From: Thermoplasmatota archaeon
GTDB lineage: Archaea > Thermoplasmatota > E2 > DHVEG-1
Reading direction: 5' to 3'
Assembly (NCBI GenBank): GCA_030619765.1
Contig: JAUXAU010000003.1
Location: forward strand, 11,654 to 75,653
DNA: 64,000 nucleotides
The notes beneath the pieces are model-generated. The model saw nothing but the letters and a program-made list of their open reading frames with translations. It searched no databases and was not told the origin of the DNA. Position numbers and translations under genes: made by a program. Every line of letters starts with the position of its first letter. Positions within the stretch are counted from its first letter, which is position 1. Shown piece after piece: positions 27,091 through 60,083 of the stretch.

Positions 27091-27250
27091 GGTTTTTTAA
27101 TTGTAAAAAAAGATTTAAATGTTGCTATAAAAATATCAAATGCAATACTTAACTATAATCACTATTTATGATTAGAGTTTGGAATGTGTATCGGCTTTTG
27201 TAATATTTGACCGATACCGATATATATTAGTTTTAACATATCGGTATATT

Positions 27251-34468: not shown

Positions 34469-34596
34469 ATCTTTGGTTATTCATAATTTGCTATTTTAAA
34501 ATATTGGAGCAATACCTAGCAGGTATGTTTTAACAGATTTAACATCACTTAAAATTACAAAATTAACTTGTAATACCTTGCAGGTTTTAAAAAAAA

Positions 34597-35064: not shown

Positions 35065-35203
35065 GAGTACACTGTATAATATTATTGATTTTATCTTTTT
35101 TGGAAGCAATACCTAGCAGGTTTTGAATGCAATCAGATGGCTATGATTAGAGTTTTTAAGGAGAAATATTAACTATAATCACTATTTATGATTAGATAAT
35201 GAC

Positions 35204-38504: not shown

Positions 38505-38612
38505 TTAACAAATCAATAAAAAATTAATTTATATAATTTCCTAGAGCAATATCTAACAAACTATAATCATAATATGTAATGCGAGTCTTAGCCTCTAATC
38601 ACTGTACTTTGA

Positions 38613-40265
38613 TTACAATCTAAAGATATATCGTAAAATTGGAAACGCATATGGGAATCGTTCAAGAAGTCTCAAAAACAACGGATTAATTAATACTTTG
38701 TTTAAAGGCATTGTGACTTGTAATGTTGACCAACCACTCTCAGCACCATTTGAATCTTTTGCTTTTGCTTCAATGGTAAATGCTCCTTGGTTTGCATAAG
38801 TATGATCAATATCTACATCTACCCCAGTGCCATGAGGACCATCCCAAACTTCAGTTTGACCATCGCCCCATTTTATATAATAATAAACATCGTCACCATC
38901 TGGGTCTACTGAATTAAATGTATATGTGTAAGATGTTCCTGCTTTTCCATTAGTTGTACCATCTATATCTGGCTTCTCAGGAGGGAAATTTGGACTGGTA
39001 AATGGATTACCGACTGGAACAACAGATAATGGTACAAGGTTTGTTTGTGAAGATATCCCTAATGCAGAGCGCAATCCCGCTTCATTAGAAATATCATAAA
39101 TAACATTGGCACTTAGATTTAATGCAGCTGTTTCGAGAAGAACATTATGTATTATTGCACCGTTCTCATAATACCAAAATCTTTGATACTGAGAACTTCC
39201 AATATTAGTATCGAGACATGGTATAATAATAAACGATGCTGTATCAATTATGATATTATTATACTCAACACAGTTTTTTATCTCCTCCCGTTGATCACCT
39301 TGAAGGATTTCAGTGATGGAATGAGTATTATAAAAGTACTGATACACACCACTATGGTTTGCAGCAAAAATCTTGAAAGGATAATACCCAATAGCACTAG
39401 GTAGCGTTCGATGTCTTTTACTATTTACATTATCAATTAAATATGAATATCCATATGAGCTCCAAATTAATTGAGATTGTTCCAGCAGTGATAGAGGAAT
39501 GTCATCCCAAAGATCTATTATCTGTCGATTATTAATGGCATCCTCAAGACTTATTGTATTATCAATAACCGCAGGTAAGTTTGATACTGGAAGTGGGTCA
39601 TAAGTAAAATCATATGGAGAAGAAGGATGTCCAAGCGGCATGATTATTTCAGGTTTTTCATTTGAAGGAATGCCAAGTTCATAAAGATCCTCAACATAAA
39701 GTCCAGTTGTGACTGTACCTAAATCAAGAGCATTAGCATCAAAATAGATGTCCTGCCCTATCATTCCTATGTCCGCCATTCCTCTCAATTCATCTGATTC
39801 AGCATTCATATCCCATACAAGACCAAATTTTATAGGAGATGTGTATTGACCGAGATGCAAATAGTTCCCACTTTTAAACAAAGAGAGAGAATGATTTTCA
39901 GGGACGTATTTATATGTAGCATCACTCCTAATCACATAAATTATAGTTGAATAAGTTCCGTCTGGATTGAAGATCGAGCGATTACCATTTTCCGTGTAGC
40001 CATAAGCAGCCCATAAAATTGTGGATAATTCTTCATCAGTAACTGCCTCTCCAGTAAATGATCTTACAGACATCCTCCGGCAAATAGATTCCTCAAGCAC
40101 CATATCAACGGATATTGGAGGTGGAAGAGGATACTCATCCATAATAAGATTAATATTTTCTATTGCATTTTTGGGCTTTATTTTAGGTAGTTCGCCTGTT
40201 ACTGGTAAAACAGCAGCAAATATCAGTATCGTACATATTAAAATACCAAATATTATCTTCGTCAT
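38613..40265 (-). CDS. Secreted tandem nitroreductase-fold (SagB/ThcOx-like) protein with PKD domain
   Basis: RRMSVRSF..LWAAYG and RQII..IWSSYG..RTLPSA repeats; signal peptide; WGDG. Confidence 0.85.
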   Translation of the reverse strand: MTKIIFGILICTILIFAAVLPVTGELPKIKPKNAIENINLIMDEYPLPPPISVDMVLEESICRRMSVRSFTGEAVTDEELSTILWAAYGYTENGNRSIFNPDGTYSTIIYVIRSDATYKYVPENHSLSLFKSGNYLHLGQYTSPIKFGLVWDMNAESDELRGMADIGMIGQDIYFDANALDLGTVTTGLYVEDLYELGIPSNEKPEIIMPLGHPSSPYDFTYDPLPVSNLPAVIDNTISLEDAINNRQIIDLWDDIPLSLLEQSQLIWSSYGYSYLIDNVNSKRHRTLPSAIGYYPFKIFAANHSGVYQYFYNTHSITEILQGDQREEIKNCVEYNNIIIDTASFIIIPCLDTNIGSSQYQRFWYYENGAIIHNVLLETAALNLSANVIYDISNEAGLRSALGISSQTNLVPLSVVPVGNPFTSPNFPPEKPDIDGTTNGKAGTSYTYTFNSVDPDGDDVYYYIKWGDGQTEVWDGPHGTGVDVDIDHTYANQGAFTIEAKAKDSNGAESGWSTLQVTMPLNKVLINPLFLRLLERFPYAFPILRYIFRL

Positions 40266-40492
40266 TTTTTATTAACCTCTCTTAACAATATAGTAATATC
40301 GCGTTATAATTTAAATATATCTGTCCAACTATAAATATCCCATATTAAACTCTAATCAAAAAATGAAATACGATTCTTTTTCTATCATCACTGTACATTG
40401 AAACCTGCTAGGTATGAAAATTTAACCTAATAAATAACAGCTGATTTATTTCTTTAGTAAATCTTATATGATGTAGATATTTAATCAATACT

Positions 40493-40840
40493 ATGGATGA
40501 GAAAGTTGATGAATATATAAAAAAACAAAAATCCCCGCAAAAGGAGATTTGTCAGAGATTAAGGAAGATTATTCTAAAAACATTTCCTGAAATCAATGAA
40601 GAAATGAGAGTAGGAGTTCCTTGTTATGGTCATACAAAAGAAGATCCTTGTGGAAAATATTACATCGCTGCACTTAAGGACCATGTTAATTTAGGTTTTT
40701 CATTAAAAGGATTATCAAAAAAGGAGCAAGAATTATTTGAAGGTAGTGGAAAAACAATGAAGCATATTAAGGTTTATTCTTTGAAAGAAATGGATGAAAA
40801 AAAGATTATTAAGCTAATTAAATTGGTAAAAGAAAAATAA
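40493..40840 (+). CDS. DUF1801 (YdhG-like) protein
   Basis: VDEYI..LRKII..GVPCY..HVNLGF..GSGKTMKHIK. Confidence 0.85.
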   Translation: MDEKVDEYIKKQKSPQKEICQRLRKIILKTFPEINEEMRVGVPCYGHTKEDPCGKYYIAALKDHVNLGFSLKGLSKKEQELFEGSGKTMKHIKVYSLKEMDEKKIIKLIKLVKEK

Positions 40841-41231
40841 GATCTATCTGCAAGCTGCAATTTTCTCTCTCTTTTTACAGAACCTCTGAAGTTCTAATCA
40901 TTAACAGCTAATTAGAGTAAGAGCCTGCTAGGTATGACATTGATATTCAGCAGGCTCTAATCATAAAATGTAATGCGACTCTTAGCCTCTAATCACTGTA
41001 CTTTAATGAGAATCTTAGTCTCTAATCATTGAACATATTAGATGTTCAAACTCTGATCATAAAATATGATTAGAGTGTTTTTATAAGTTAAATAGAATAA
41101 TACTTTCAGTGATCCTATCAAATTGTTTATTAACGATAACATCGTGGCATTTTATAGAGTTGTTTAGGAAAATGACATTATTTAACAAAGTCCTTATATA
41201 CTATGGTATACATAAGTATACTATGGTAGAC

Positions 41232-41474
41232 ATGAGTACGACCACGATTAAAATTCACAAAGAAACAAAAGCAGAAATAGATCAATTTAGAGAATACAAA
41301 AATGAAAGCTATGATGAGGTTCTGAAAAAACTCATTTATATAGTAAAAAATATCAGAAAGAAACCTGAACTAAGCAAAGAAACTATTAAAGCAATCGAAC
41401 AAGCACGAGAACGTATAAAAAAAGGACACTTTGTGACTGAGGAAGAAGCAAAAAGACGGCTGGGTCTAAGCTGA
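41232..41474 (+). CDS. Antitoxin-like protein (archaeal RelB type)
   Basis: TTIKI..ESYDEVLKKL..G.FVTEEEAKRRLGL. Confidence 0.75.
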   Translation: MSTTTIKIHKETKAEIDQFREYKNESYDEVLKKLIYIVKNIRKKPELSKETIKAIEQARERIKKGHFVTEEEAKRRLGLS

Positions 41475-41497
41475 TGTATGAAATTAAAACTTTATAA
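41474..41497 (+). pseudogene. Possible stub of a RelE-like toxin (MYEIKTL*)
   Basis: The ATG overlaps the antitoxin TGA (TGATG) and the frame stops after 7 codons. Confidence 0.45.
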
Positions 41498-41535
41498 ATA
41501 AAAACACTATTCGTTATTCAAAGGGTGAGGCATTT

Positions 41536-42105
41536 ATGATTGCAGAAAATGGTGAAAAGATCTGGAAAATATTCTTGAGAAAGCATTGGAAAATGCTTGT
41601 TTTATTTGTAGTAGGAGCTATTTTGGCATCGATAGGTGCAGTTCTTGTCTATTTATGGTTCGTAGGAGATGCTCAATTAACTGGTCTTGTACCTGCGACT
41701 TTAGGTCTATGGACAATGGGACATTTCGTGACTTTTTTGTTACATTTGATTTTCTGGGAACTTCTCTTCATCGGAGTCCCAGTAATTTTAGCAGCAGTAG
41801 TAGGTTGGCTATGGTGGAAAAAATTACCTGATGATGAAAAGGAAGAATATAAGCGCGGACATCTTTTCGGCAAACGTTCGCACAGAACAGAAGGAGGAGA
41901 AGGAATATCGTTTTTGATCTTTATTGCGTTCATCATCAAGGTTTACCTTGATGGAAACTGGAATGTTCCTTTTGCAACTTGGACATTTGACTATCTCGTG
42001 TATTCTTGTCTTTGGGCATTAATCTGGGTTTTAATCATCTTCGGAATTCCTATGGCTTTAGGAGGCACCTGGTGGATACGCCATGAGATGAAAAAGAAAT
42101 CCTAG
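41536..42105 (+). CDS. Four-TM membrane protein
   Basis: Hydrophobic segments; GGTGAGG RBS. Confidence 0.8.
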   Translation: MIAENGEKIWKIFLRKHWKMLVLFVVGAILASIGAVLVYLWFVGDAQLTGLVPATLGLWTMGHFVTFLLHLIFWELLFIGVPVILAAVVGWLWWKKLPDDEKEEYKRGHLFGKRSHRTEGGEGISFLIFIAFIIKVYLDGNWNVPFATWTFDYLVYSCLWALIWVLIIFGIPMALGGTWWIRHEMKKKS

Positions 42106-42286
42106 AAACAAAACCTGCTAGGTCTGATAATTATTCTTAACAAACTCCAATCATAAAACATAATAAGAATCTTACCCTCTAATCACTGTACATATTAGAT
42201 TTTCTTAGACTCTAATCATAAAATACGATTAGAGTTTTAAACTCTAATCAAAGAATATAATTACAATTTAAAGGATAGTAAGTCGT

Positions 42287-42619
42287 CTAACGGACAATAG
42301 CTTCTACTTTCTGTGTAAAATATTTTTCAGTTTCCAGATAGAGTAACGTATCATATAATTTAATTAATTTTTCCACTGCTGGATTTTCTTCATTTAATTT
42401 AAACAACTTAGCCCTTCCAATTTCTCTTGTTGGAATGACTATATTCAATCGTAATAAATTGTCCCAAATTCTATGTAAGGTCGTCCATCCTATATTTGCA
42501 TTTTCTGCTATATCTGTTAACGAGTAATCTAATCCTCTCCCTTCGATTAAAAAGTCAAGAACTCTAATTACAGGAGAATTTCCTAATGCTTCTCTAAATA
42601 TAGTTGTTTCTTTCATCAT
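42287..42619 (-). CDS. Winged-helix protein
   Basis: YSLTDIAENANIGWTTLHRIW..IGRAKLFKLN. Confidence 0.8.
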   Translation of the reverse strand: MMKETTIFREALGNSPVIRVLDFLIEGRGLDYSLTDIAENANIGWTTLHRIWDNLLRLNIVIPTREIGRAKLFKLNEENPAVEKLIKLYDTLLYLETEKYFTQKVEAIVR

Positions 42620-42727
42620 ATAATACTATATCCTACCCACTATATAAAACTTTCTAATTTGGTATATTGACATACCGTAATATTAGATAACATTTATATG
42701 TTTCTATGATTTAACCTTAAAAGGATA

Positions 42728-42997
42728 ATGGAAAAAAGAGCAATTCAAGAAAAAACTTTAAGAAAATTAATGGCAATGAAACCCCCAAAATGGGGAAGTT
42801 CTCATACTGAAGAAACAAATTTAGTAAAAGGTTTACCATCACATTTAAGAGGGGCGAAAATTGTCGAAAAAGCTGTAAAAGAATTATATCAAAAAGAATT
42901 TCTCATAAAACCAAAAAAAACTGGTGAATGGCACGTTTCCTTAAACCCTCAAAAGAGAAAAGAGATATACAGATTCTTAGGATTACCACCAAAATGA
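42728..42997 (+). CDS. Small basic hypothetical protein
   Basis: ORF divergent from the wHTH gene. Confidence 0.7.
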   Translation: MEKRAIQEKTLRKLMAMKPPKWGSSHTEETNLVKGLPSHLRGAKIVEKAVKELYQKEFLIKPKKTGEWHVSLNPQKRKEIYRFLGLPPK

Positions 42998-43113
42998 CAA
43001 TAGTAAATTACTACTTCAACAATCATCATAAAATGTAATTATAGTTAGTCATTTTCTCCTATAAACTTGCGGATTAATCTCTAATCACTGTATCTTGATT
43101 AGAGGAAGGATTA

Positions 43114-44100
43114 TCAAAAGAATTTCCAGACCATTAATTCCTTTGTTGCATCTGAAGCATAGTTCCTATGGGCAATTATTTCTAGTTTATGACGAAATCT
43201 TAAAGGAGTTTTTTCATTCCAATGATAAATATAAGGTTCTGTAGTAAAATTATATTTAGAAATGCCATCGATTAATATTTCAACATGATCAATTGGAATA
43301 CCAGAATTTAATGTAACATCAATTTCTAGATCAACAGGTCCAATTATAATTGGAAAATAAAAAGGAATTATCATTTCATTTTTGTAATAAATTCCATTTT
43401 TCGGCTTTAATATATCAACAATAAGCTCTTTATCAAGTGAAAAATTTATGCATATAGTTTCAAAATCACCTATTTCGTACTGATATGAATACTTACCAAT
43501 ATAACCCCATTTTTCAACAGAAACATCAAAATGTCCAGCACCAAGATTCATAGTATAAAAACCATTTTTATCAGATGTAGTGCCATTATAGGTTAACTGA
43601 CTATGAATATCCCACCAGTGAAGAACAAGGCTTGCATTAAAAATAGGTTTACCTGTAAAATTATCGAATACATATCCACAGACTTTTGATGTTTCAGGTT
43701 GAAAAGGATACATTGACATATTTACCCAAACAGTCTCATTTTCTCCGATGTCAATATTTCCTTTCCAATAGAAATGATAACCACTTGCATGCGCCCCATA
43801 TTCATGACAGTGACCTGCTGCAACATTTTCAATGATATAAAAACCAGTCTCATTTGACCATGTTTCATAATCGTAATGGTTACCTTGATCATCGTCAATA
43901 AAAAAACTAATAATGGCTCCTTCAATAGGTTCACCTGTTTCAAAATCAGTTGTAAACCCACAAATCGTTGAATTTTCAGAAAATATTAGCTTATTGGATT
44001 TCTTTGCAATTGTTCCAAAAGATTGGATAACGCTCATAAAGATAAACAAAATAATTAAAGCAGAGACAATTCCCTTTCGATATAGAATTGATTTTTCCAT
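43114..44100 (-). CDS. Secreted protein with two carboxypeptidase-regulatory-like beta-sandwiches and an Ig-like C-terminus
   Basis: G.V.D..TG.PI..A repeats. Confidence 0.8.
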   Translation of the reverse strand: MEKSILYRKGIVSALIILFIFMSVIQSFGTIAKKSNKLIFSENSTICGFTTDFETGEPIEGAIISFFIDDDQGNHYDYETWSNETGFYIIENVAAGHCHEYGAHASGYHFYWKGNIDIGENETVWVNMSMYPFQPETSKVCGYVFDNFTGKPIFNASLVLHWWDIHSQLTYNGTTSDKNGFYTMNLGAGHFDVSVEKWGYIGKYSYQYEIGDFETICINFSLDKELIVDILKPKNGIYYKNEMIIPFYFPIIIGPVDLEIDVTLNSGIPIDHVEILIDGISKYNFTTEPYIYHWNEKTPLRFRHKLEIIAHRNYASDATKELMVWKFF

Positions 44101-44325
44101 TTAATTCCTCCCTATTTAATAAATTTAAAGGTTATTCTATATTTAAATCTTTGTTGAAAAGAACCTAATCAAAAAACATAATGCGACTCTTACTCTCTAA
44201 TCACTGTACATATATAGAGGTTCAAACTCTAATCATAAAAGATGATGCGAGTCTCAGGCTCTTATTACCGTACGTATAAACCTGCTAGGTATGATAATTT
44301 TAATTAACAAATATAAACAATAGTT

Positions 44326-46170: not shown

Positions 46171-46425
46171 GTCATATCAAAACACTAAAAAAAGATGCAA
46201 ATCTTTATGCATCCCCTTCAGGTGCTAATAATATTATAATTTAATACATTATATATACTTATAATAATATAATAATATAAAAAACCTGCTAGGTATGATA
46301 ATTTTATCTGATAGACCCTAATCATAAATTCAGCTCATTAGGAGCAGAATCTCCAATCATAAAACGTAACGCAACTCTCAACCTCCAATCACTGTACATT
46401 GATTAAAACCTACTAGGTTTGATAA

Positions 46426-47241
46426 TTAACTAATAGCCCTCTTTACTCTTTCAATAGTTTTATTGATAAAATCCTTATCTTCAATAATTAACTCAATTGC
46501 ATTATTTGGACAAATTTCAACACAACGACCACAAGCAAGGCAACTATCACTTTTTACTGCAATACCATCTTTAATTTTTATTGCATCTATAAAACAAACA
46601 CCTTCTGTACAAGCACCACAACCAGTACAATTTTCATTTACTTTTATTTTGACACCAGGCATCTTTTTAACAGTTGAAGAAAGCGTATCATCCAAATACG
46701 GAAGCATTCTATAAAGGCAACAACAGTTACAACAATTACAAACAGTAATTAACGGAATCTTTGAGCCTACTCCAAGCCAGGTCTCATCAAGTTTATCTCT
46801 ACCGATGAGATGAACCAAACCTTCCTTGCGGCATTTTTCAACATGGGCAAGGGCTTCCTTTTTAGAAGCAGGTTTACCAAGCTTGGGAGGAATTTTTTTT
46901 GCTGCTTCACCCATAAAAAGACATCCAAGGGAAGCAGAATAGTTTTTACATTTCATTGCTTCACGACATAAACAAAAATTCATGATGAAACGGTAACTAG
47001 ATTTTTCAATGAAATATTCAACAACTTTCGAAGGAACTACAATGTTATCTGGTGGTTCAATTTTTTTGTTAAGCTGTATTTCAACAACATTGTCTTTTAT
47101 TAGATATGTAAGATTGCTTTTATCAAAAAGCATTTTGGTAATAATTTTTCTAACAATAGGAATATGGGTTAATTTTGCTATTTTAAATCGATGAGGAAAA
47201 ACTTTTTCTATAAGTCTAACAAATCTTTTAGAAGGCTCCAT
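46426..47241 (-). CDS. 4Fe-4S dicluster domain protein
   Basis: CTGCGAC..C, CLACGRCVEICP, CNCCNCCC. Confidence 0.88.
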   Translation of the reverse strand: MEPSKRFVRLIEKVFPHRFKIAKLTHIPIVRKIITKMLFDKSNLTYLIKDNVVEIQLNKKIEPPDNIVVPSKVVEYFIEKSSYRFIMNFCLCREAMKCKNYSASLGCLFMGEAAKKIPPKLGKPASKKEALAHVEKCRKEGLVHLIGRDKLDETWLGVGSKIPLITVCNCCNCCCLYRMLPYLDDTLSSTVKKMPGVKIKVNENCTGCGACTEGVCFIDAIKIKDGIAVKSDSCLACGRCVEICPNNAIELIIEDKDFINKTIERVKRAIS

Positions 47242-47452
47242 GATAGGGTGAAGAAGACAAAATCACTTGATAAATATTATTGTTAGTTTTTATCACAATG
47301 AAAATGTAAGATTCAAGTTAGGTATATTTATTAAAAGTAACCTGCCAGGTATGACAATTGTCATCTGAAACTCTAATCATAAAATATAATACGACCCTTA
47401 GTCTCTAATCATCACAAATGACTAGAAAATGAACACAACTAACACCACTACA

Positions 47453-48343: not shown

Positions 48344-48522
48344 CTCTCAACACTCACCTTGATAAAAACACTATTTGCGTTTCATTAATAAATATTGTTG
48401 CAAATAATCTCTAATCACTGTACACTTGATTATAAAAAACTTGCAATTACTATAGTATAATGTTCATCGCATGTAAAACAATAAATAAAGCTTAATTAAG
48501 AAACCTTACATAAGGAAACGAA

Positions 48523-49194
48523 ATGATACTTGAAATATTCCTAATTATTATAATTGGATTATTTGTTTCATACTTTATTTTTCTGAGGATAATTCGGAAG
48601 TTTATTCCTTCCCCTGCACCAGCATTCATCGGTCGAATTCTTGATAGCAATCTTAGAAGAAAAATGCAATCACCTGAGAAAGTGATACAGCGCAGTGGTA
48701 TACAAAAAGGAATGCAAGTATTAGAAGTCGGCTGTGGAAGTGGGGCAATTACCACTTTTGTTGCACGAGCTGTCGGAAACAAAGGAAATGTATATGCTCT
48801 TGACATTCAACCAGAAATGCTACAGCAGTTAGAAAATAAACTCTCTTGGCCAGAAAACAAGGATATCACTAATATTAAACTGATAGAAAGTAGTGCTTAT
48901 GATCTACCATTTGATGACAACTCTCTTGACCTTGTCTATATGGTAACGGTATTTGGGGAGATTCCTGATCATGATAAGGCATTAAAAGAAATAAAGAGAG
49001 TTTTAAAACCCGGTGGAATTCTTGCGATAACAGAGTTGTTTCTTGACCCTGACTATCTGTTAAAATCCACGGTTACGAAAAAAGGAGGGGAGGCAGGATT
49101 TATCCTTGATGAGATATCGGGAAATTTCTGGCATTATACTATTAGACTTAAAAAAATGCATAATAAAAAAACTAATCATAAAAACGGTCCATGA
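48523..49194 (+). CDS. Class I SAM-dependent methyltransferase
   Basis: VLEVGCGSG, LKPGG. Confidence 0.9.
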   Translation: MILEIFLIIIIGLFVSYFIFLRIIRKFIPSPAPAFIGRILDSNLRRKMQSPEKVIQRSGIQKGMQVLEVGCGSGAITTFVARAVGNKGNVYALDIQPEMLQQLENKLSWPENKDITNIKLIESSAYDLPFDDNSLDLVYMVTVFGEIPDHDKALKEIKRVLKPGGILAITELFLDPDYLLKSTVTKKGGEAGFILDEISGNFWHYTIRLKKMHNKKTNHKNGP

Positions 49195-49382
49195 GGAGTA
49201 GAAATTCTATTCATAAAATGTAATGCGACTTTTAGTCTCTAATCATTGTACATTGATTAAAACCTGCTAGGTATGACATTGTTATCCAAAAAAACAAACT
49301 AGAAAATTCTAATAATGTTGTTCATATTCTGAATCATTAATTTGTCCAAAATAGGTCTAATTCTTTTGTGAGGGCTTAGGTA

Positions 49383-50114
49383 ATGGATAAGAAAATTTCT
49401 GAACTTAAAAAAATTGTAGCAACTTCAGACCAAATTGTTGCATTCACTGGTGCAGGGTTCTCAGCTGAAAGCGGTATTTCTACCTTTCGTGGTACTGGTG
49501 GTCTTTGGTCAAAGTATGATCCTAACATTTATGCGAATATCAATATCTTCATGCAGGATTCAACATATTACTGGAATTTTTTTAGAGATGAAAGGTATCC
49601 AGTAATTAAGAAAGCTAAACCCAATGATGGTCATTATGCGTTGGTTGAGCTGGAGAAGCGTGGGAAGATCTACCGTGTAATAACTCAAAATATCGACGGA
49701 TTGCACCAGGAGGCAGGGCAATCTGATGTAATTGAACTTCATGGGAGTACCAGGAAGACTAATTGTTTGAGTTGCGGCAAGACTTATACTATAGATGAGA
49801 CCTACAAATTATTGCAAAAAGAGCTGCCTCCAAAATGTTCATGTGGGGGAAATCTAAAACCAGGTACTGTACTTTTTGGAGAGCCTTTACCTCAAGTTGC
49901 ACTTGATATGGCATCACTTGCCTCTAAGAACTGTGATTTATTTCTAGTATTAGGTAGTTCACTTGTTGTGTATCCTGCAGCTTCTATGCCGATGATTGCT
50001 AAGAAAAGTGGAGCTGCTTTGGTTATTGTAAATATTGACCCAACTCCAATGGATGACATTGCTGATTTAATCTTTCGTGAGAGTGCTTCAAAGGTTTTGT
50101 CTAAGTTGATATGA
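49383..50114 (+). CDS. cobB: Sir2-family NAD-dependent deacylase
   Basis: FTGAGFSAESGISTFRG, TQNIDGLH, HGS, Zn-binding cysteines. Confidence 0.93.
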   Translation: MDKKISELKKIVATSDQIVAFTGAGFSAESGISTFRGTGGLWSKYDPNIYANINIFMQDSTYYWNFFRDERYPVIKKAKPNDGHYALVELEKRGKIYRVITQNIDGLHQEAGQSDVIELHGSTRKTNCLSCGKTYTIDETYKLLQKELPPKCSCGGNLKPGTVLFGEPLPQVALDMASLASKNCDLFLVLGSSLVVYPAASMPMIAKKSGAALVIVNIDPTPMDDIADLIFRESASKVLSKLI

Positions 50115-50211
50115 TGACATTGATATTTAGCAGGATCTAATCATAGAATGTAATGCTTTTTTAGATTCTAATCACTGTACATTGATTAAAACCTGCCAGG
50201 TATGATAATTC

Positions 50212-51042
50212 TTACAAATCAACATACCTTATACTCAAATCCCAAAGCCTTTCTGCCAAGTTCATATCATAAGATTCTTTCGATGATTTATGTATCTCTT
50301 TCTTTGCGAAATATTCCCCGGTAATGTTTTCCAGGTCAGATGAGCTTGCAAGATATATTGAGGTTTCAGCACCTATCTTAGGATCTTTTCCCATTAACTT
50401 AAATATTGCACGAGAAAAACCACTGGCATCTCTCCCAAGATTGGTTTTATTCATTCCTGGATGAACACAATTAACCACTACACCAGTTCCTTCTAATTTT
50501 TTCGCTAACAGCCGTGTGAATAGAATCAATCCAAGTTTTGATTGTCTATATGCTTTCGCACCAGAGAATTTCTGTTTAAATTCTATATCATCAAAATTAA
50601 TTGTACCATAATGCATTCCAGATGTCACATTTATTATACGAGAGGGACTGCCTTTCTTTAAAACATCAAGTAACAGATTTGTCATGAGAAAAGGGCCAAG
50701 ATAATTTGTTGCAAAAATATTTTCAATACCATCTTTTGATTCTCTTCTTTTAAAATCCCAAACAGCAGCATTATTAATTAAAACATGAAGCTTATTATAT
50801 TTTGATTTAAACTCTTTACAACAATTTCTGATGGAATCAAATGATGCAAGATCACAATTTAAAAAATCAATTTTTTTGTTGTTACTTGACTTTATTAATT
50901 CATCTTTTGTATTCTTACCTCTTAGTTCATCTCTAGTTGTAAAAACAACAGTTGCACCAAATCCTGCAAGCGCTCGTGCAGTCTCTTTTCCAATGCCCGA
51001 AGTTACACCAGTAATCAAAACAATCTTATCTTCCAACAACAA
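50212..51042 (-). CDS. Short-chain dehydrogenase/reductase (retinol-DH-like)
   Basis: TGVTSGIG, NNA, YRQSK. TTG start after GGAGG. Confidence 0.9.
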   Translation of the reverse strand: MLLEDKIVLITGVTSGIGKETARALAGFGATVVFTTRDELRGKNTKDELIKSSNNKKIDFLNCDLASFDSIRNCCKEFKSKYNKLHVLINNAAVWDFKRRESKDGIENIFATNYLGPFLMTNLLLDVLKKGSPSRIINVTSGMHYGTINFDDIEFKQKFSGAKAYRQSKLGLILFTRLLAKKLEGTGVVVNCVHPGMNKTNLGRDASGFSRAIFKLMGKDPKIGAETSIYLASSSDLENITGEYFAKKEIHKSSKESYDMNLAERLWDLSIRYVDL

Positions 51043-51183
51043 CCGCCTCCAATTTATTTTTAAGATAATCAACTAAGTTTGAAAAATGTTTTGCTAGTTA
51101 TGACTTATAATATCTGAATAAGACTCTAATCATAAAACATGATTGTACTCTTAGCCTCTAATCATTGTATCCATAACGATGTA

Positions 51184-51849
51184 TTATATCTCTTTAATGA
51201 GTTCATTAAGAGATAAAATCCTAGCAAACCCTTTTCGTAAAACCTTCAATTCAGCTTCATGCAAATCCGGGAAATGTGCTGATGTCACATCGCTTCCAAA
51301 TACAACCTTAAAGCTTCTTTCAAATGCCTGCCTTGCAGTTGTAGAACAACAATAATTGGTCAACGTTCCACAAATAATCACCGTGTCTTTTTCCATGTTT
51401 TTAAGAATAGTTTCTAATGGAGTATCATAAAACGCTCCATAGGACGATTTATGAATAATAATTTCACCTTCAATTGGGGCTAGTTCATGCCAAACATGTC
51501 CTTTTATGAAAAACGAAGACTGATCAACTTCAAGGTCAGGAAAACGAGTAGGCATAAGAGGTAGAATTTTAGGACGATCAAGATAGTTATGAGTCTTTGA
51601 ATAAACGGTAAAAATAACAGGTATGTTTCTCTCTCGGCAGTGTTCTATCAAGCTTTTGATACGTGGAACTTGCCTCGTCGCCTCTGGTACCCAGTAAGGT
51701 GTCCAGCGTGGTTTAACAAATTCGTCCTGCATATCAACAACTAGTAGAGCACATTTATCTGCATTGATGTCAAACTTAGCTTCTCCTGATTCGTAACCTT
51801 TTTTGGCTAAATCAAGTACCAGTTTTTCTGTAAATTTTCCAATATCCAT
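51184..51849 (-). CDS. Isochorismatase-family cysteine hydrolase
   Basis: VVDMQ, KSSYGAF, TNYCC. Confidence 0.88.
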   Translation of the reverse strand: MDIGKFTEKLVLDLAKKGYESGEAKFDINADKCALLVVDMQDEFVKPRWTPYWVPEATRQVPRIKSLIEHCRERNIPVIFTVYSKTHNYLDRPKILPLMPTRFPDLEVDQSSFFIKGHVWHELAPIEGEIIIHKSSYGAFYDTPLETILKNMEKDTVIICGTLTNYCCSTTARQAFERSFKVVFGSDVTSAHFPDLHEAELKVLRKGFARILSLNELIKEI

Positions 51850-51980
51850 ATTTAACTTACAACAAATGATTTCTTAATAAAATTACGAATAAAAACTCTA
51901 ATCATAGAATATGATTATTTAATAATAGAAATAGACACGATTTTTACAGAATTAAAAAGGTGATGACCGTTAGATGATTT

Positions 51981-52880: not shown

Positions 52881-53027
52881 AATTTTCCTAGATTAACCAT
52901 GTTTTAAGTAAAAAAATGTTTTGGGAACAATCATAATTGTTACCAATGAGTAGTTTACTAGATATTACATCCTAATTTGCAAAGTAATAACTATATTTCA
53001 GTCTTCTGTTGGCCTTAATGAAACCTG

Positions 53028-54965
53028 CTATGTATGACTAGATAACGTTTGTTTCAACCTGTTTATTTTATCCCTAAGAAAGATCGCTTTTTCAAAATCA
53101 AGATTATCTGCTGCCTCTCTCATTTCAAACTCAATCAAAATAATCATCTTCGGAATGTCTTCTTTTGGGATATGTTTTATATCCTTTACCTCAACAATTT
53201 TTTCTTTAATCGGCTTGACAATAGTCTTTGGAACAATGTTGTGTAATTTATTATGCTCAACTTGAATGTTTCTTCGTCGGTTTGTCTCATCAAGTGCTTG
53301 CCTAATTGAATTAGTAATATTATCTGCATACAACACAACTTTCGAATTCACATTCCTTGCAGCTCTCCCGATAATCTGAATAAGACTCCTTGCATCACGT
53401 AGGAAACCTTCCTTATCAGCATCAAGGATGCCAATAAAGCCTACCTCAGGAATATCAATTCCCTCACGAAGCAGATTGATACCAACTAAAACATCAAACT
53501 CGCCTAGTCGAAACTGCCGGATAATCTCCGATCGCTCAAGTGTTTCGATCTCCGCGTGAAGATACCGAGTTTTAATATTTTTCCCAGCAAAATAGTTAGC
53601 AAGTTCCTCAGCAAGTTTTTTTGTAATTGTTGTGACAATTACCCTTTCCTTCCGCTTCACAGTTTTATCAATTTCAGTTATCAAATCGGCTATTTGACCT
53701 TGGATACCCCGAACTTCAATTAGTGGATCAACAAGACCTGTTGGTCGGATAATCTGCTCGACAACCTGATCAGATATCCCTAGTTCATAGTCACCTGGTG
53801 TTGCTGATACAAAAATCACGCTCTTCATATACTGTGTAAATTCATCAAAGGTTAGTGGTCTATTATCAAAGGCACTAGGAAGTCGAAAACCATAATCAAC
53901 CAATGCCCTCTTCCGTGAATAATCTCCGTGATTCATCCCATGAATCTGAGGAATGGTCCGATGACTCTCATCTATAAACAATAGGAAATCCTTAGGGAAA
54001 TAATCAAGTAAGCAAAATGGCTTATCCCCGGGTTTCCGCCCGTCAAAATGTCGGGAATAGTTCTCAATACCTTTACAATAACCCATCTCATCAATCATCT
54101 CAAGATCATAAAGCGTCCGCTGTTTCAACCGATGGGTCTCAATCATATCAAGTTTTGGTAACTGTTCTTCAAGCTCATTCCTAATAGACTCAATCGCCTG
54201 CTTTTTTTTACCCCCTTCAATAACAAAATGCTTAGCAGGATATACAAAAACATGATCAAATACATCAGACGTTTCACCAGTAATCTTGTTGATCTCCCGT
54301 ATTTTTTCAATCTCATCACCAAACATCTCAACACGGATAATATTGTCATAATACCCAGGGATAAGATCAATTGTATCACCTTTCACCCGAAACCGACCAG
54401 GTGCAAGATCAAAATCATTCCTCTCATATTGCATGTCAACAAGATGTTCAAGAATCTTTTTCCGTTCCACATTCTGCCCTTTGCTTATTTCAAAGCCAAG
54501 CGTGGCAAAATCATGAGGATCCCCAACACTATAAATACAGGAAACAGACGCCACAACAATTACATCCTCTCTAGAAAGAAGAGATGCTGTCGCGGCAAGC
54601 CGCATCTGTTCAATCTTTGGGTTGATATCAGCATCCTTTTCGATATATTGATCCTTTGAAGGAATATACGACTCCGGCTGATAATAATCATAATATGAAA
54701 CAAAATACTCCACACGGTTTTCTGGGAAAAACTCCCGAAACTCACTATACAACTGCGCGGCAAGTGTTTTATTATGAGCAAAAACAAGCGCTGGCTTCTG
54801 CACCTTTTCAATCACATTGGCCATAGTAAACGTCTTACCAGAGCCAGTAACACCTAGCAGGGTCTGGTACTCCTCACCTCGATGAAGACCTTCAACAAGT
54901 TTTTGTATCGCCTCAGGCTGCGATCCCTTAGGCACTAGGTCAGTGACAAGCTTGAACTTTCTTAT
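53028..54965 (-). CDS. uvrB: Excinuclease ABC subunit B (probable ATA start at 54965)
   Basis: LGVTGSGKT, YYDYYQPE, DESH. The conserved FKLV..P.G.QP N-terminus lies upstream of the track start. Confidence 0.95.
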   Translation of the reverse strand: MRKFKLVTDLVPKGSQPEAIQKLVEGLHRGEEYQTLLGVTGSGKTFTMANVIEKVQKPALVFAHNKTLAAQLYSEFREFFPENRVEYFVSYYDYYQPESYIPSKDQYIEKDADINPKIEQMRLAATASLLSREDVIVVASVSCIYSVGDPHDFATLGFEISKGQNVERKKILEHLVDMQYERNDFDLAPGRFRVKGDTIDLIPGYYDNIIRVEMFGDEIEKIREINKITGETSDVFDHVFVYPAKHFVIEGGKKKQAIESIRNELEEQLPKLDMIETHRLKQRTLYDLEMIDEMGYCKGIENYSRHFDGRKPGDKPFCLLDYFPKDFLLFIDESHRTIPQIHGMNHGDYSRKRALVDYGFRLPSAFDNRPLTFDEFTQYMKSVIFVSATPGDYELGISDQVVEQIIRPTGLVDPLIEVRGIQGQIADLITEIDKTVKRKERVIVTTITKKLAEELANYFAGKNIKTRYLHAEIETLERSEIIRQFRLGEFDVLVGINLLREGIDIPEVGFIGILDADKEGFLRDARSLIQIIGRAARNVNSKVVLYADNITNSIRQALDETNRRRNIQVEHNKLHNIVPKTIVKPIKEKIVEVKDIKHIPKEDIPKMIILIEFEMREAADNLDFEKAIFLRDKINRLKQTLSSHT

Positions 54966-56512
54966 GATACCAACTCCTTTTCACGAAGAAGCCTATTATA
55001 CTTCAATGCAAAACGATGTGCCTCATCACGAATCTCCTGAATAAACCGAAGTGCTTTATCAGTTTTTGTTAGCCGTAAAGGATGAGTTACTCCTGGAACA
55101 AAGATCTCTTCAAACTGTTTTGCAATGGAAACTATTGGGATTTTCACATCAAGTTTTTCAAGCTGCCTTAACGCGAAATTAAGCTGCCCTCTACCTCCAT
55201 CGATTATAATAAGATTTGGAAACTCAGAATCCTCTGCTAAAAGACGGGTGTATCTTCGCTTAACAACCTCACTTATTGCAGCAACATCATCAATACCTTC
55301 AACTGTTCGAATGCGAAAACGGCGATAGTTGCTTTTATCTGGCTTCCCATTGCGAAACTGCACCATAGACCCAACTGTTGACGTCCCAGATAAATGGGAA
55401 ATATCGAAACATTCAATAACCGAAGGACTGTCCTTAAGATTTAATCGTTTTTGTAGCGCTTCAACCTTCTCAACTTCTGCAAAAAAAGATATATCAATAT
55501 TTTTTGCCACTAAATCAAGCAGCTGCTTCTTAGATCCTTTCAAAGGAGTGGTAAGCACTACCTTAGATCCTTTCTTAATTTTCAGAAAAGAAGAAAAAGA
55601 CTCATCCATTTTATCTGGCAGAATAATTTCTTTTGGTACGGGGTATTCCGAATAATATTGAATGAGAAATTCCTCAAGGAAATCCTCATTGAAATCAAAG
55701 ACAAATTCATTCTTATTTGATAACGTACCCTTATAGATGTTAAAGAGCAATAAATAGACCTTTTCATCTTTCACCTGATAATTAATGATATCCTCGTCAT
55801 ATTTTCTCTGTCGATCAATGTTCTGCCGTTCACTAAGATGCTCAAGTGCAGTGATTTGGTTTCGCAGTTCAAGAGCTTGTTCAAACTGAGCGTTCTCTGA
55901 ATGCATTTTCATTTCACGCTGCATCTGTTTTAACAGTTTTTTTTCACTTCCTGATAAAATCAATCTTACCTTCTCTATCCTTTCGTTATACTCCTGCAAA
56001 GAAATAAGGGCAGCACATGGTGCACTACAAAGATGAATATGATACCGCAAACACGGTTTTTTTGGCATACGTTTACAGGTCCTAATCATAAACGTCTTAC
56101 GTAAAAACTGTAAAATATAATCCCGTTCATGATAGGAAACAAACGGGCCGTAAAAACTTCCTTTTCCCATCTTATTTCTGGCGATAAGAAGCCTGGGATA
56201 GTCCTCATCTGTCAACTGAATATAGGCATAATTCTTGGCATCTTTTAATTTGATATTATACCTGGGTTGATACCGTTTAATAAGTGTGTTTTCTAGGATA
56301 AATGCTTCAACTTCAGTATCTGTTACAATACACTCTACCGAGTCAATATTCCTAACCAGACTTAGGCTTTTTATATCTAAATCATTTTTCTTTAGATAAC
56401 TCATCACCCGTTTTCGAAGATTCTTTGCCTTCCCCACGTAGAGTACTTTTCCAAATTCATCTTTGAATTGATAGCATCCAGGGTTCTTTGGAAGATTATT
56501 CACCTCAAACAT
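54962..56512 (-). CDS. uvrC: Excinuclease ABC subunit C
   Basis: [36 protein letters not shown]. Lacks the C-terminal HhH domain. Confidence 0.95.
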
Positions 56513-59318
56513 GTATCCTTTCACACACAATATTTTTTAAGATTTCACCAGTAAAGCTATCCCTGTTTTGTGTAATCTCTTCAGGTGATCCAAACGCAAC
56601 AACATAACCACCCATATCTCCACCTTCGGGCCCAAGATCTAAAATGTAATCCGCTGACTTAATCACTTCAAGGTTATGCTCGATTACAACAATCGTGTTT
56701 CCCATCTCAACTAGGCTATTCAAAACATCAATAAGTTTCTTTACATCATGAAAATGAAGACCAGTTGTTGGTTCATCAAGCAAATACAACGTCCTTCCAG
56801 TACTCTTCTTTGACAACTCCCGCGTAAGTTTAATCCGTTGTGCTTCACCACCAGACAGCGTAGTCGAACTCTGACCAAGTTTAATATAATCAAGACCCAC
56901 ACGTGACAACGTCTCAAATTTCCTCCTAATAAAAGGGATGCGTTCAAAAAGTTCAAGTGCCTCTTCAACACTCATTTCTAAAACATCAGCAATCGTTTTC
57001 CCTTTATACGTAACCTCAAGAGTCTCCTTATTATAGCGTTTTCCTTTACATTCTTCACATTCGATATAGATATCAGGTAAAAAATTCATTTCAATTTTTA
57101 TCAGTCCATCCCCACTGCATGCTTCACACCGTCCACCTCTAACATTAAATGAAAACCTCCCAGGTTTATACCCTCGAACCCGTGCCTCTGGTGTCTTAGC
57201 GAAAATCTTGCGAATCTCATCAAAAACTTTTGTATAAGTAGCAGGGTTACTCCGAGGAGTCTTACCTATAGGACTCTGATCAATCACAATGACCTTATCA
57301 ATCTGTTCATCAAACGTTATAGTATCATGATCACCGGGGTTAACCCGCGAATTATGCAGTTTCTTCATGAGCCCCTTATACAAAATATCATACACAAGGG
57401 TTGATTTCCCACTTCCAGAAACACCTGTAATAAGGGTAAGAACGCCAATGGGAATATCAACATCAATATCTTTCAAGTTATGCTCACGACACCCATGAAC
57501 ATGAATATACCTCTCCGATTTTCTTCTCTTATTTGGAAGAGCAATTTGCAATTCCTTTGAAAGATACTTCCCTGTAAGCGAAGTCGGATGATTCTCAATT
57601 TCCTCAGGTGTCCCCTCGGCTACTATCTTTCCTCCATGAATACCTGCACCAGGTCCCATATCAATAACATAATCAGCATGTCTTATGGTTTCCTCGTCAT
57701 GCTCAACAACAATCAAGGTATTTCCAAGATCCCTCAACCGATATAGCGTATTGATTAATTTCTTATTATCACGCTGATGAAGCCCAATCGACGGCTCATC
57801 AAGGATATATATGACCCCCATCAGATTAGAGCCAATCTGCGTTGCAAGTCGAATCCGTTGCGCCTCTCCCCCAGAGAGCGTCCTAGCACCCCGTGAAAGC
57901 GTTAAATAATTTAGACCCACTTTGTCAAGAAAATCCAACCTAGATCTGATTTCTTTTAATATCTGAAATGCAATCTCCTCCTCTTTTTTAGAAAGTGTTA
58001 ATGTCTTGAAAAAAACGATACAATCTTTAATTGACGTATCAGTAACATCAATAATCGATTTCTCAGCAATCTTCACTGATAGTATCTTTTGTTTTAGTCG
58101 TTTCCCGTGACACACAGGGCACTTGGATATATTCATGAATTTTTCCATATCATTTCTTCTATAATCGGACTCTGTCTGCCTATACAATCGTTCAGATTGC
58201 GGAATGAGGCCCTCCCATGCTCCTCTCCCAGACCATTGAGTATCACCGTTTTTCATAACCACGTTAAACCTGATCTTCTCAGGAGAGCCATACATCAATA
58301 CATTATATTGATGTTCTTTCAAATCCTTTATAGGAGTAAAAATGTCGAATCCAAAGTGTTTGGCAACCGCTCCAAGATAGTGTATCCGCCAACCATCCCG
58401 TACAGTTTTATAAAGTGAAACAGCGCCATCCGCGATGGATTTTTCCTTATCTGGAATAATCAGATCAGGGTCAAACTCCATCTTAATGCCTAGCCCGTGG
58501 CATTCCTCACAAGCACCAAACGGACTGTTAAAAGAAAACATCCTAGGCTGTAATTCCTCAAATACCACCCCGCATTTTGGACACGCCATCTTCGAAGAAT
58601 ACACTACTTCATTTCCCTCTTTGTCAAGAACAATCAAAAGACCATCAGATTTCTTCAAAGCATTTTCACACGCCTCAGCAAGCCGTGACTTATCACTAAT
58701 TTTCAAACGATCAATTATGATTTCTATGTCGTGTTTTTTATACCGCTCCAACTTGATCTCTTCATCGGTTCTAAAAATCGTTTTATTCACTCGAACCCGA
58801 GTGTAGCCTTCTTTGTGCAAACTTCTAAACAGTTGCTCATAAGTCCCTTTTTTCTGCCGAACAATCGGAGAAAGAATTGTAATCATCCCATCAAAGTCTT
58901 TCGAAATACTCCTTGCGATACTTTCAGGAGATTGCGGTTCAATTCTTATATCATGCGCCGGGCAATAGGGCACTCCAATTCGCGCAAAAAGCAATCGTAG
59001 ATAATCATAAATCTCAGTAATCGTGGCAACGGTACTCCGTGGGTTTCTACTTGTCGATTTCTGCTCAATTGATATTGCTGGTGACAAACCCTCAATGCTG
59101 TCTACATCAGGTTTCTGCATACGCCCAAGAAACTGACGTGCATATGCAGAGAGCGACTCAACATATCTCCGTTGTCCTTCTGCATAAATCGTGTCAAAAG
59201 CTAGGGTTGATTTTCCAGATCCAGAAAGCCCAGTAATAACTATGAATTTATCCCTTGGTAGCTCAACTGTAATATTCTTAAGGTTATGTTCGCGAGCACC
59301 CTTAACGATGATCTTCAT
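56505..59318 (-). CDS. uvrA: Excinuclease ABC subunit A
   Basis: Two ABC modules ([21 protein letters not shown]) and Zn fingers. Confidence 0.97.
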
Positions 59319-59662
59319 ATTAAATCCCCTAAAATGTAGATACCTGACTGAAGCAACTTTATACTCATAAGCTTTTATTGGTTAGTTATCTACCACTCTT
59401 AGTAATTTTAATTATTTCAGAGAAGCCTTTCTATTATTTAAGCATATATGTGGGATCATTAAACATATTACTCCGGACGACGGTACTCATCTAAAAAGGC
59501 TTTAATCATAAAACGTGGGCCATAAGAGGAGAAACACTAATCACAGGATGTAATGCGACTCTTGATCTCTAATCCCTGTATCCTGATTATATTCTTAAAC
59601 TCTGTTTTAAACCTAAAGTTCATTTGGTTTTTTCCTGGGTAGAAACCTAAAAATATCTTTAA

Positions 59663-59956
59663 TCACTCAATTTTCTTCCCACATTTCCTACAGAACTTTG
59701 CATCGCTATCAAGCTCTGTCCCGCAATCTGAACAATGCTTTTCCGTTGAGCGTGAACTTTCTCCAACTGATTTTGCAAACGCTTTTGCCTTTTTTTCTAT
59801 CCTTTTGCCAAATTGCTCAGCCTTTCTACCAAATTCTTCAGCAAACTTATCAATATCCTTCTCAAAAGAACTACTCTTGGCTAAATAATTACCACATTTA
59901 GTACAGTATTGCGCATCATCATCATTTTTCTTCCCACATTCATTACAATATGGCAT
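59663..59956 (-). CDS. Double zinc-ribbon protein
   Basis: Two CxxCG..D A.(F/Y)CxxCG repeats. Confidence 0.85.
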   Translation of the reverse strand: MPYCNECGKKNDDDAQYCTKCGNYLAKSSSFEKDIDKFAEEFGRKAEQFGKRIEKKAKAFAKSVGESSRSTEKHCSDCGTELDSDAKFCRKCGKKIE

Positions 59957-60083
59957 TTTTCACTCCCCAATTATAATAATTAAAACCAGTATTGATTTAT
60001 AAAGTTCTCTTTTGAATTTATTTAATCAAAATTCATTAAAATCACTTGATATGACGATAAAAAAAAATTGAAAAAAATGTGTT

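Follow-up and report, generated by a model that had tools for sequence, protein, structure and literature searches.

A local array of accessory genes parted by a composite palindromic repeat in a Thermoplasmatota archaeon, with putative cassette recombination at the repeats

The locus and its repeat family

A 64,000-nucleotide stretch of DNA from an uncultured sediment archaeon of the Thermoplasmatota (the window; contig JAUXAU010000003.1 of GenBank assembly GCA_030619765.1) contains some 30 unrelated accessory genes, plus the uvrABC operon, in one row parted by a family of short palindromic repeats (Table 1). Single genes or gene pairs, with their own promoters, are stacked beside a tRNA-Pro gene and separated by a composite site specific to the lineage. 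From the sequence comparisons described here we lean, with somewhat more conviction than doubt, towards viewing this row as a chromosomal gene-cassette array whose cassettes would be exchanged by site-specific recombination at the repeats. The genome holding the window (G000; a 3.17-Mb assembly, with the array on contig C110) was compared with a set of 108 genomes of the family, representing 40 genera; relatives, contigs and individual loci are designated below by G, C and L numbers.

Repeat modules were defined by repeat finding, hand alignment and profile searches. Module A has a majority form, AAACTCTAATCA-TAAAATG-TAATGCGACTCTTAG (pattern CTCTAATCA-N7-TAATGCGACTCTTAG), and a minority form that is a true palindrome, CTCTAATCA-N7-TGATTAGAG. 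Module B reads CTCTAATCA-CTGTACAT-TGATTA(GAG), module C comprises AAACCTGCTAGGTATGA and either of two tails, TAATTTTA or CATTGATATT(CAGCAGG), and a fourth module, A0, is an A-like palindrome that often stands directly before A. A reading of this DNA from its letters alone (the sequence-only reading) had described a cyclic unit of three modules in most intergenic gaps, and this description is borne out: 15 of the 18 gaps at 38.5-59.7 kb contain at least one module, and copy numbers lie far above chance, the exact 9-mer CTCTAATCA occurring 24 times in the window (0.9 expected from shuffles) and the C core AACCTGCTAGGTATGA 12 times with no more than two mismatches (0.02 expected). The same reading took TAATGCGACTCTTAG for a decayed arm; it is instead the conserved majority form across genera. 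Between 38501 and 59700 we located 55 module matches, 50 of them on the + strand and the other five being right arms of palindromes; 51 of the 55 are intergenic, in a stretch whose intergenic share is 14%. Altogether, 71 matches fall in 34 kb, where the density across the remaining genome would predict 7.7.

The claim that all copies share one polarity holds for this sub-array and fails beyond it, as a second sub-array of variant modules (the A palindrome, B' (AAACTCTAATCATAGCC) and C' (AAACCTGCTAGGTATTGCT)) occupies approximately 25885-35197 in the opposite (-) polarity, with modules in seven of its 11 gaps. Within each sub-array polarity is strict, whatever the direction of the genes. For most genes the stop codon lies 0-50 nt from a module, in agreement with the earlier description, and the uvrB TAG does fall inside CCTGCTA, at 53028. 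Complete units are also present in gaps between convergent genes (50115-50211 and 42106-42286).

A profile of the A-B unit, run with nhmmer against the whole assembly, placed all copies in one stretch of C110, apart from one solitary unit on contig C116; all five + strand copies of AACCTGCTAGGT in the genome lie within the window. The family is thus local in the genome, and not a dispersed repetitive extragenic palindrome or bacterial interspersed mosaic element (REP/BIME) or a miniature inverted-repeat transposable element (MITE). This genome-wide mapping, which the sequence-only reading had proposed as a check, found the repeats confined rather than spread around the genome. Among relatives, a DNA search matched the full unit in 13 of 41 genomes, and a sequence model detected the repeat in 24 of the 108 genomes and 14 of the 40 genera. 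Where contigs are long enough, the copies again cluster locally between single genes and share one polarity within an array: the complete 2.32-Mb chromosome of G002 (CP070724.1) carries a 24-kb array and a smaller one, further arrays occur in G003, G004 and G009, and in a different genus the arrays reach 33 kb (G076) and 16 kb (G077). Searches of plasmid, phage and viral-contig collections with the repeat yielded no match, and a search of Rfam returned no family and a single match at chance level. Conservation across the 14 genera covers the arms but not the flanks, a sign of selection on the sequence.

In two sister species, G004 and G005, the A-B unit also occurs fused to a conserved extension of ~160 nt (TTGTCAGGTATGGACCACATACC...), forming a dispersed A-B-X unit of ~215 nt. 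Its copies (L028 10514-10735, L029 3650-3760, L030 10024-10240 and L031 10274-10490) are solitary, lie on several contigs, often at contig ends, and could represent a small RNA gene or the terminus of a mobile element.

Gene-content differences between relatives

G000 and G002 are 93-97% identical in shared genes, and their synteny is confined to the array itself, where eight common blocks are bounded at modules. The gene for a short-chain dehydrogenase (SDR) occupies its array position in G000 only; in G002 this position has a single site, whose sequence follows the G000 left cluster as far as TAATCA and, from TTGTATC on, the right cluster. A different G002 locus has an SDR gene of 80% identity, next to these modules but inverted relative to them. 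A gene for a 452-aa nitroreductase is present only in G002, between two copies of an A-B unit of which G000 has one. Over the cassettes encoding DUF1801 and a 189-aa protein, G003 and G000 are 95% identical, with other DNA between the two cassettes in G003; identity ends at GGTATGA, inside C, on one side and resumes at GTATGA on the other. Four exact-protein look-ups for strain variants gave one match, a contig from another metagenome (L099), and three empty results; L099 is ~99% identical to the window for ~490 nt, including DUF1801, up to CTAATCA, and is unrelated beyond that point. Homology over the 189-aa cassette begins at GTATGA in five loci. These are the four sharp joints (SDR, DUF1801 of L099, GGTATGA of G003, and GTATGA of the 189-aa cassette). 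The check that the sequence-only reading had proposed, whether gene gain and loss between related genomes breaks at the repeats, has a positive outcome: the ends of insertions and deletions fall within the repeats, several times immediately 3' of the CTAATCA arm or inside C.

Nine of the cargo genes are found again in other genomes, in changed order and usually in the same orientation to the repeat; recurring cargo includes the genes for the nitroreductase-PKD protein, the DUF7557 protein, the 189-aa protein, the CarboxypepD_reg-domain protein, DUF1801, the methyltransferase, the isochorismatase-family hydrolase and the serpin. By our own count, orientation to the repeat is kept in about 12 independent placements and reversed in two, those of SDR and the IF-2B-family gene (binomial P ~0.007). 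Recurring cassettes usually travel with their flanking modules: the 189-aa gene, found in eight arrays, always has B-C upstream and C(-A-B) downstream.

Site architecture, candidate recombinase and alternative readings

Judged from its sequence, module B has the layout of an Xer/dif-type site. The dif core is arranged as 11-6-11 (PMC8371274, PMC5357621); module B reads CTCTAATCAC-TGTACA-TTGATTAGAG, with 10-nt inverted arms about a 6-nt spacer (full form at 43078-43104), and A-type sites have 10-nt arms and a spacer of 5-7 nt. The closest functional analogues are integron CALINs (clusters of attC sites that have no integrase gene), the pdif modules of Acinetobacter plasmids, which depend on XerC/XerD (PMC6449649, PMC13141974), and the integrative mobile elements exploiting Xer (IMEX) that are stacked at dif (PMC5357621). 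In common with pdif modules and IMEX, the genes described here are bounded by dyads (arm, 6-8-nt spacer, arm) and the modules do not encode the recombinase; pdif modules are likewise shuffled between replicons. Unlike pdif sites, which alternate in orientation and are carried by plasmids, the present sites are direct, chromosomal and composite, in an archaeal host with a single-recombinase Xer system; the candidate enzyme is an Xer paralogue, a proposal distinct from one for the housekeeping XerA.

To our knowledge, no platform for the capture of single genes as cassettes is well understood other than the integron, whose attC site folds, as a single strand, into a long imperfect hairpin (57-141 nt) that has extrahelical bases. 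Reports from Archaea concern canonical IntI/attC integrons alone (PMC9668308), most of them CALINs (Ghaly et al. 2022). Shared with these are a one-polarity array of mostly single-gene accessory cassettes with a repeated, imperfectly palindromic site between them, stop codons in or beside that site, cassettes reordered between relatives, the frequent absence of an adjacent integrase, and sites that are more similar within a lineage than between lineages. Unlike integrons, the present arrays have no IntI with its additional domain, no long attC hairpin and arms outside RYYYAAC/GTTRRRY; their junctions are composite and variable (A, B and C), with one to six modules where an integron has one attC; their cassettes carry promoters of their own and point either way; and here two sub-arrays of opposite polarity and a 6.3-kb core-type operon, uvrABC, are included. 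The mismatch of the arms with the attC R-box at the crossover base, already pointed out by the sequence-only reading, is confirmed from the sequence: CTCTAAT/ATTAGAG deviates from the consensus at the crossover G and the final Y. When three full units were folded as DNA, either strand formed no more than three small hairpins of local extent (-5 to -12 kcal/mol; z -0.6 to -2.4 against shuffles), and canonical attC was rejected on this fold test and the R-box comparison. Of the proposal that this is a non-integron system of cassette recombination, the pattern stands, in that gene gain, loss, relocation and inversion end at the repeats and the integron features fail; the mechanism is what that pattern suggests.

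No protein reached the cut-off of 265 of the IntI models (TIGR02249), the best scores being 42-51 bits. The statement that IntI is absent therefore holds in substance, although it overlooked the gene of an integrase, a tyrosine recombinase, at 61500-62714, 2 kb away, that belongs to an unrelated element. That integrase scores 41.7 bits on TIGR02249 and was rejected as the array enzyme: this genome has 17 such paralogues, G002 lacks the gene at the corresponding position, and it heads an element with its own direct repeat. The 189-aa cassette protein, considered as a hidden recombinase, was also rejected, being a four-helix membrane protein of no enzyme family, most of whose homologues occur without repeats. 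The tyrosine recombinase domain PF00589 is matched 39 times in G000 and seven times in G002, none of the latter near the main array; 23 array loci contain no recurrent gene besides the cargo families.

The candidate that we retain is a family of Xer-like recombinases of ~333 aa (G000 member at C116:20184-21182), Xer-like over their full length, 37-42% identical to one another, and scoring 97-114 bits on the XerA model, below its cut-off, and 29-51 bits on IntI models. It is found in 16 of the 108 genomes, in single copy in most carriers, and 10 of the 16 also bear the repeat, where chance would give 3.6 (Fisher P = 1.7e-4); counted by genus, the overlap is seven of 10, where chance would give 3.5 (P = 0.012). 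In G002, G004 and G059 the gene stands at a distance of 1.8-2.8 kb from repeat units, and in G000 it is 14 kb from the sole unit outside the array, on the same 21-kb contig (C116). This association is suggestive, and makes the family the best candidate for the array enzyme; we would grant the identification about a third of the confidence that we place in site-specific cassette recombination as such. The search for a co-occurring enzyme that the sequence-only reading had called for thus pointed to an Xer-like tyrosine recombinase, and not to a REP-associated tyrosine transposase (RAYT) or TnpA(Y1), which would be represented by Y1_Tnp (PF01797): no match to this domain was found in G002 or G001, both of which bear the repeat.

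Under the reading that we favour, cassettes would be excised and re-inserted by site-specific recombination at the repeats, with a tyrosine recombinase acting in trans. The working cores would be dyads on the 9-10-nt arm CTCTAATCA, cut at the boundary of arm and spacer, and module C, joined at CTAG/GTATGA, would provide a second core. One strand pair would be exchanged at the arm/spacer boundary and the product then completed by replication, as occurs with IntI at attC and with XerC on CTX phage. We propose a single strand exchange because joints lie at this boundary even between A-type and B-type sites, whose spacers differ, and it fits better than the classical two-step exchange. Exchange in CTX-type IMEX likewise involves a single strand and needs no homology in the spacer (PMC5357621). 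The near-symmetry of the sites would fit both the two sub-arrays of opposite polarity and the two cassettes inverted in the sister genome.

A fuller version, which we offer tentatively as a possibility rather than an expectation, would be a gene-capture platform of sediment Thermoplasmatota, independent of integrons, in which a dedicated Xer-family paralogue performs single strand exchange at dif-like dyads (CTCTAATCA | 6-8 nt | TGATTAGAG), C acts as a second core or as a cassette-borne partner site, and the array starts beside a tRNA gene, extends in both polarities and can take in and transfer core-type operons, uvrABC among them. If an array does the work of an integron with different sites, probably of Xer/dif type, and without IntI, the capture of cassettes would have evolved more than once, and there would be a new recombinase/site pair for study and a handle on the exchange of accessory genes, even of bacterial-type repair genes, in uncultured sediment archaea. 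Circular cassettes joined at CTAATCA| or CTAG/GTATGA are predicted.

A number of observations weigh against site-specific cassette recombination or the proposed enzyme. The gaps 42620-42727 and 59957-60083 have no recognisable repeat, the gap 41475-41535 retains only a module C remnant, and junctions are irregular in make-up, with one to six modules and differing start points. Sharp joints number only four, most block ends being resolved only to within a module because the repeat copies resemble one another and alignments run into them; the joints involve unrelated cores, at least the TAATCA arm and module C, for which one simple site is insufficient; and short direct repeats could give such deletions by microhomology. 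The Xer-like family is absent from 14 repeat-bearing genomes, many of them incomplete metagenome-assembled genomes, is present in six genomes without the repeat, and at 11 of the 15 of its loci examined has no repeat unit nearby.

Much of this would be accommodated by a passive intergenic repeat that has no dedicated enzyme and spreads by local duplication together with neighbouring genes, its ~100-nt direct repeats, 75-90% identical, doing no more than feed homologous or microhomology-mediated recombination within a hypervariable island beside a tRNA gene. We consider this unlikely, yet the most serious alternative. It would agree with the irregular junctions and eroded-looking modules, with breakpoints mostly resolved only to within a repeat, with an SDR joint that falls within 7-9 nt of shared sequence and could equally result from microhomology, and with arrays in G002, G076 and G077 that contain no recombinase. 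The joints of SDR and L099, however, pair non-equivalent modules, an A arm with a B arm, at the arm/spacer boundary, and homologous recombination should favour long equivalent stretches; moreover, the modules around a given cargo are the same at unlinked loci and across genera, and the arms conserved in 14 genera against unconserved flanks, like the strict polarity of each sub-array, are not what such a repeat would be expected to display.

That the repeats are protein-binding sites with a role other than recombination (operators of stress or detoxification genes, bidirectional terminators or insulators, or a centromere-like or chromatin-boundary cluster) seems improbable to us. Dyad symmetry, conserved arms and a cluster unique in the genome would suit such a role, as would the loose flavour of detoxification and repair among the cargo (nitroreductases, SDR, Sir2 with an isochorismatase-family hydrolase, uvrABC, and an MFS transporter). 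Convergent gaps need no promoter, and the full units within them count against a promoter or operator function; together with a polarity that is constant whatever the gene direction and sites that move with their cargo, they make a regulatory or terminator role unlikely. Gene content between the sites is, in addition, swapped among close relatives, and the uvrABC genes of G004 and G005 lack the sites.

Slightly less probable again are single-strand hairpin elements of an HUH/Y1 enzyme (REP/BIME with RAYT, or derivatives of IS200/IS605) whose polarity would follow the direction of replication. Short imperfect palindromes in intergenic gaps, in composite clusters of one or two units, recall REP/BIME, the modules do contain small hairpins (z -5.1 and -3.3 for intact A and B palindromes), polarity is single in each sub-array and switched between the two, and Y1 transposase genes exist in G000 (eight matches to PF01797, none on the array contig), G004 and G009. 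Against this, the repeat is undispersed and tied to variation in gene content, the repeat-bearing genomes G002, complete and with an array, and G001 have no Y1_Tnp match, the majority form of A cannot form a hairpin, whole units fold no better than shuffles (z -0.6 to -2.4), and it is the sequence of the arms that is conserved, compensatory changes not having been seen. We therefore regard REP/BIME with RAYT, one of the two possibilities entertained by the sequence-only reading, as unsupported and reject it on the local distribution and the lack of Y1 in G002; MITE or insertion sequence (IS) ends are disfavoured by copies that are direct, local and variable in make-up and have no plasmid, phage or viral-contig match. 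Finally, a diverged true integron array of the archaeal CALIN type (Ghaly et al. 2022) is very improbable, since its points of agreement (array layout, mostly single-gene cassettes, stops in or beside the site, no adjacent integrase, and a match of ATTAGAG to GTTRRRY at five of seven positions) are countered by IntI scores far under the cut-off, an R-box that fails at the crossover base, the lack of a single long hairpin with R''/R' and L''/L' pairing, the one to six modules per junction and the two inverted cassettes.

Array end, cargo and neighbouring features

In G002 the serpin gene is followed by a C-like module, an arm-like module, 95 nt, and the 3' end of tRNA-Pro(GGG). The same order from serpin to tRNA-Pro(GGG) is found in G000, broken by two integrated, integrase-bearing elements. 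Element 1, absent in G002, occupies window 61440-64000, runs on to the end of C110 and continues on C96 up to 19052; it is bordered by the direct repeat GAAAAAACCAAAAGAAA[AC]AC at window 61420-61439 and C96:19053-19075 and encodes its integrase (404 aa) at its left end. Beyond it stand the C-like module, the arm-like module, a partial tRNA end, the second element within the tRNA, and tRNA-Pro(GGG). The second element (~18 kb, C96:19228-37618) is inserted in tRNA-Pro(GGG), with an intact tRNA at its right border and the partial tRNA 3' end TGGGCCCGCCGA duplicated at its left border; of the two, only this Element 2 has such a duplication.

Accretive integration at a tRNA gene offers a further comparison. 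As there, the ancestral array ends ~95 nt from the 3' end of tRNA-Pro(GGG), two classical integrase-bearing elements are lodged at that end in G000, and direct repeats part successive insertions. Unlike there, the repeats are not copies of a tRNA 3' end, the cassettes are single genes without integrases, and the large arrays of G076 and G077 have neither a tRNA nor an integrase within the sequence examined. Modules A, B and C are dissimilar to the tRNA-Pro 3' end, and their derivation from tRNA ends was rejected.

Table 1. Repeat clusters and cassettes of the two sub-arrays, with positions in the window
Feature	Position	Strand	Remarks
Module C	25885..25901	-	Outermost copy, left sub-array
A-type palindrome (CTCTAATCA-TAAATAG-TGATTATAG)	27153..27180	-	
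Two arm-based sites (ATCTAATCA-AAACCT-TGATTAGAT; TTCTAATCATAGCC)	28180..28324	-	
Variant unit: B' (AAACTCTAATCATAGCC), A palindrome, C-like	28581..28660	-	
Variant site CTCTAATCA-TGGCCTTT-TGATTA	30883..30905	-	
Two C modules	34510..34587	-	
Full variant unit A-B'-C	35107..35197	-	Inner end of left sub-array; same variant in G004 (L017 9927-11119)
Cluster A-B	38558..38616	+	Left end of + sub-array; abuts nitroreductase-PKD stop; common to G002 (L013 14031)
Nitroreductase-PKD protein, 550 aa	38613..40265	-	Pfam; 87% homologue elsewhere in G076 array, same orientation to repeat
Cluster A-B-C, upstream of DUF1801	40347..40425	+	95%-identity block with G003 begins at B arm
DUF1801, 115 aa	40493..40840	+	98% in G003, 89% in G077, identical protein on metagenome contig L099; neighbours differ each time
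Cluster A0-C-A-B-B-A, ~190 nt, six modules	40889..41079	+	Divergence point: L099 at CTAATCA|, G003 at GGTATGA|
DUF7557 protein, 121 aa	41109..41474	+	84% homologue in G076 array; absent at this place in G003 and G002
Module C remnant (GTATGAAATTAA), between DUF7557 and 189-aa gene	41476..41490	+	Homology to five other loci begins exactly at GTATGA
189-aa four-helix membrane protein, no known family	41536..42105	+	
Cluster C-A-B-A-A', convergent gap	42106..42270	+	
Two-gene cassette: 110-aa helix-turn-helix-like protein (-), 89-aa protein (+), no repeat between	42287..42997		
Degenerate A and full palindromic B (CTCTAATCA-CTGTATCT-TGATTAGAG)	43020..43104	+	Hairpin z -3.3
CarboxypepD_reg-domain protein, 328 aa	43114..44100	-	61-62% homologues in G076, G077 arrays, same relative orientation
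Cluster A-B-A-B-C	44160..44302	+	
MFS transporter, 614 aa	44326..46170	-	
Cluster C-A0-A-B-C	46282..46430	+	
4Fe-4S protein, 271 aa	46426..47241	-	
Cluster C-A-B(degenerate)	47338..47430	+	
GH43/BNR-like protein, 296 aa	47453..48343	-	
Solitary B, upstream of methyltransferase cassette	48405..48428	+	Block common to G002 begins here
S-adenosylmethionine (SAM) methyltransferase, 223 aa	48523..49194	+	Other neighbours in G002 and G003 contig C217
Cluster A0-A-B-C	49173..49284	+	A0 overlaps last methyltransferase codons
Sir2, 243 aa	49383..50114	+	
Cluster C-tail-A-B-C, convergent Sir2/SDR gap	50115..50213	+	Left joint of SDR insertion/deletion, at TAATCA|
SDR, 286 aa	50212..51072	-	Absent here in G002; another G002 locus, inverted relative to repeat
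Cluster A-B	51121..51176	+	Right joint of SDR insertion/deletion
Isochorismatase-family hydrolase, 221 aa	51184..51849	-	Also in G009 array
A-type palindrome (CTCTAATCA-TAGAATA-TGATTA)	51893..51920	+	Left joint of IF-2B cassette
IF-2B-family protein, 299 aa	51981..52880	-	G002: 7 kb away, inverted
Module C over uvrB stop codon	53019..53046	+	
uvrB-uvrC-uvrA operon	53028..59318	-	Repeats at both ends: C 3', A0-A-B 5'
Cluster A0-A-B, upstream of uvrA	59500..59592	+	Duplicated in G002 around extra 452-aa nitroreductase cassette
Zinc-ribbon protein (97 aa) and serpin (424 aa)	59663..61358	-	Last ancestral-array genes before C-like and arm-like modules and tRNA-Pro(GGG)

The uvrABC operon (6.3 kb) is patchy in the genus. 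It occurs in repeat-free contexts in G004 and G005, and uvrB was not found in G001 (86% complete, on one contig) or in G003, which is less complete. The 189-aa protein has 38 homologues in metagenomes, most without the repeat; in another lineage (metagenome loci L048, L062 and L069) the homologous gene is flanked by an unrelated palindromic repeat, GGGGTTAAATTTTAACCCCAAACCCAAAC, which suggests analogous, lineage-specific boundary repeats around these homologues. Genes for Sir2 and the isochorismatase-family hydrolase are neighbours in both G000 (49383-51849) and G002 (L014 6014-7459), directly adjacent in G002 and split by the SDR cassette in G000; they could form an NAD-salvage pair of deacetylase and nicotinamidase.

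Cumulative GC skew of the window is maximal at ~30-32 kb, and genes converge on 30-38 kb, near the switch of sub-array polarity. The peak may reflect only gene orientation, or it may mark a replication terminus. A dif-like dyad was sought at the switch (35100-35660 and 38250-38620) and none was found; the array of G002 lies 127 degrees from the best orc1/cdc6 gene, which is weak evidence on any link to dif. The 532-nt gap at the switch contains a start-less open stretch (35340-35593) that we take, by eye, to be the C-terminal end of SAICAR synthase (PurC), and which is probably a gene fragment.

Elsewhere in the assembly a different family of palindromic repeats, CTCGATTCAATGTTTAGAGAC...GTCATTGAATCGAAACCATCATTT, occurs at the contig ends C5:1-150 and C10:1-140, and may mark other repeat-bounded regions that broke the assembly. 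At the right of the array, G002 has an additional gene for a 222-aa zinc-ribbon protein between the zinc-ribbon and serpin genes (L014 16135-16803), and in the zinc-ribbon region two blocks of homology overlap by 76 nt in the window (59892-59968), as after a local duplication.

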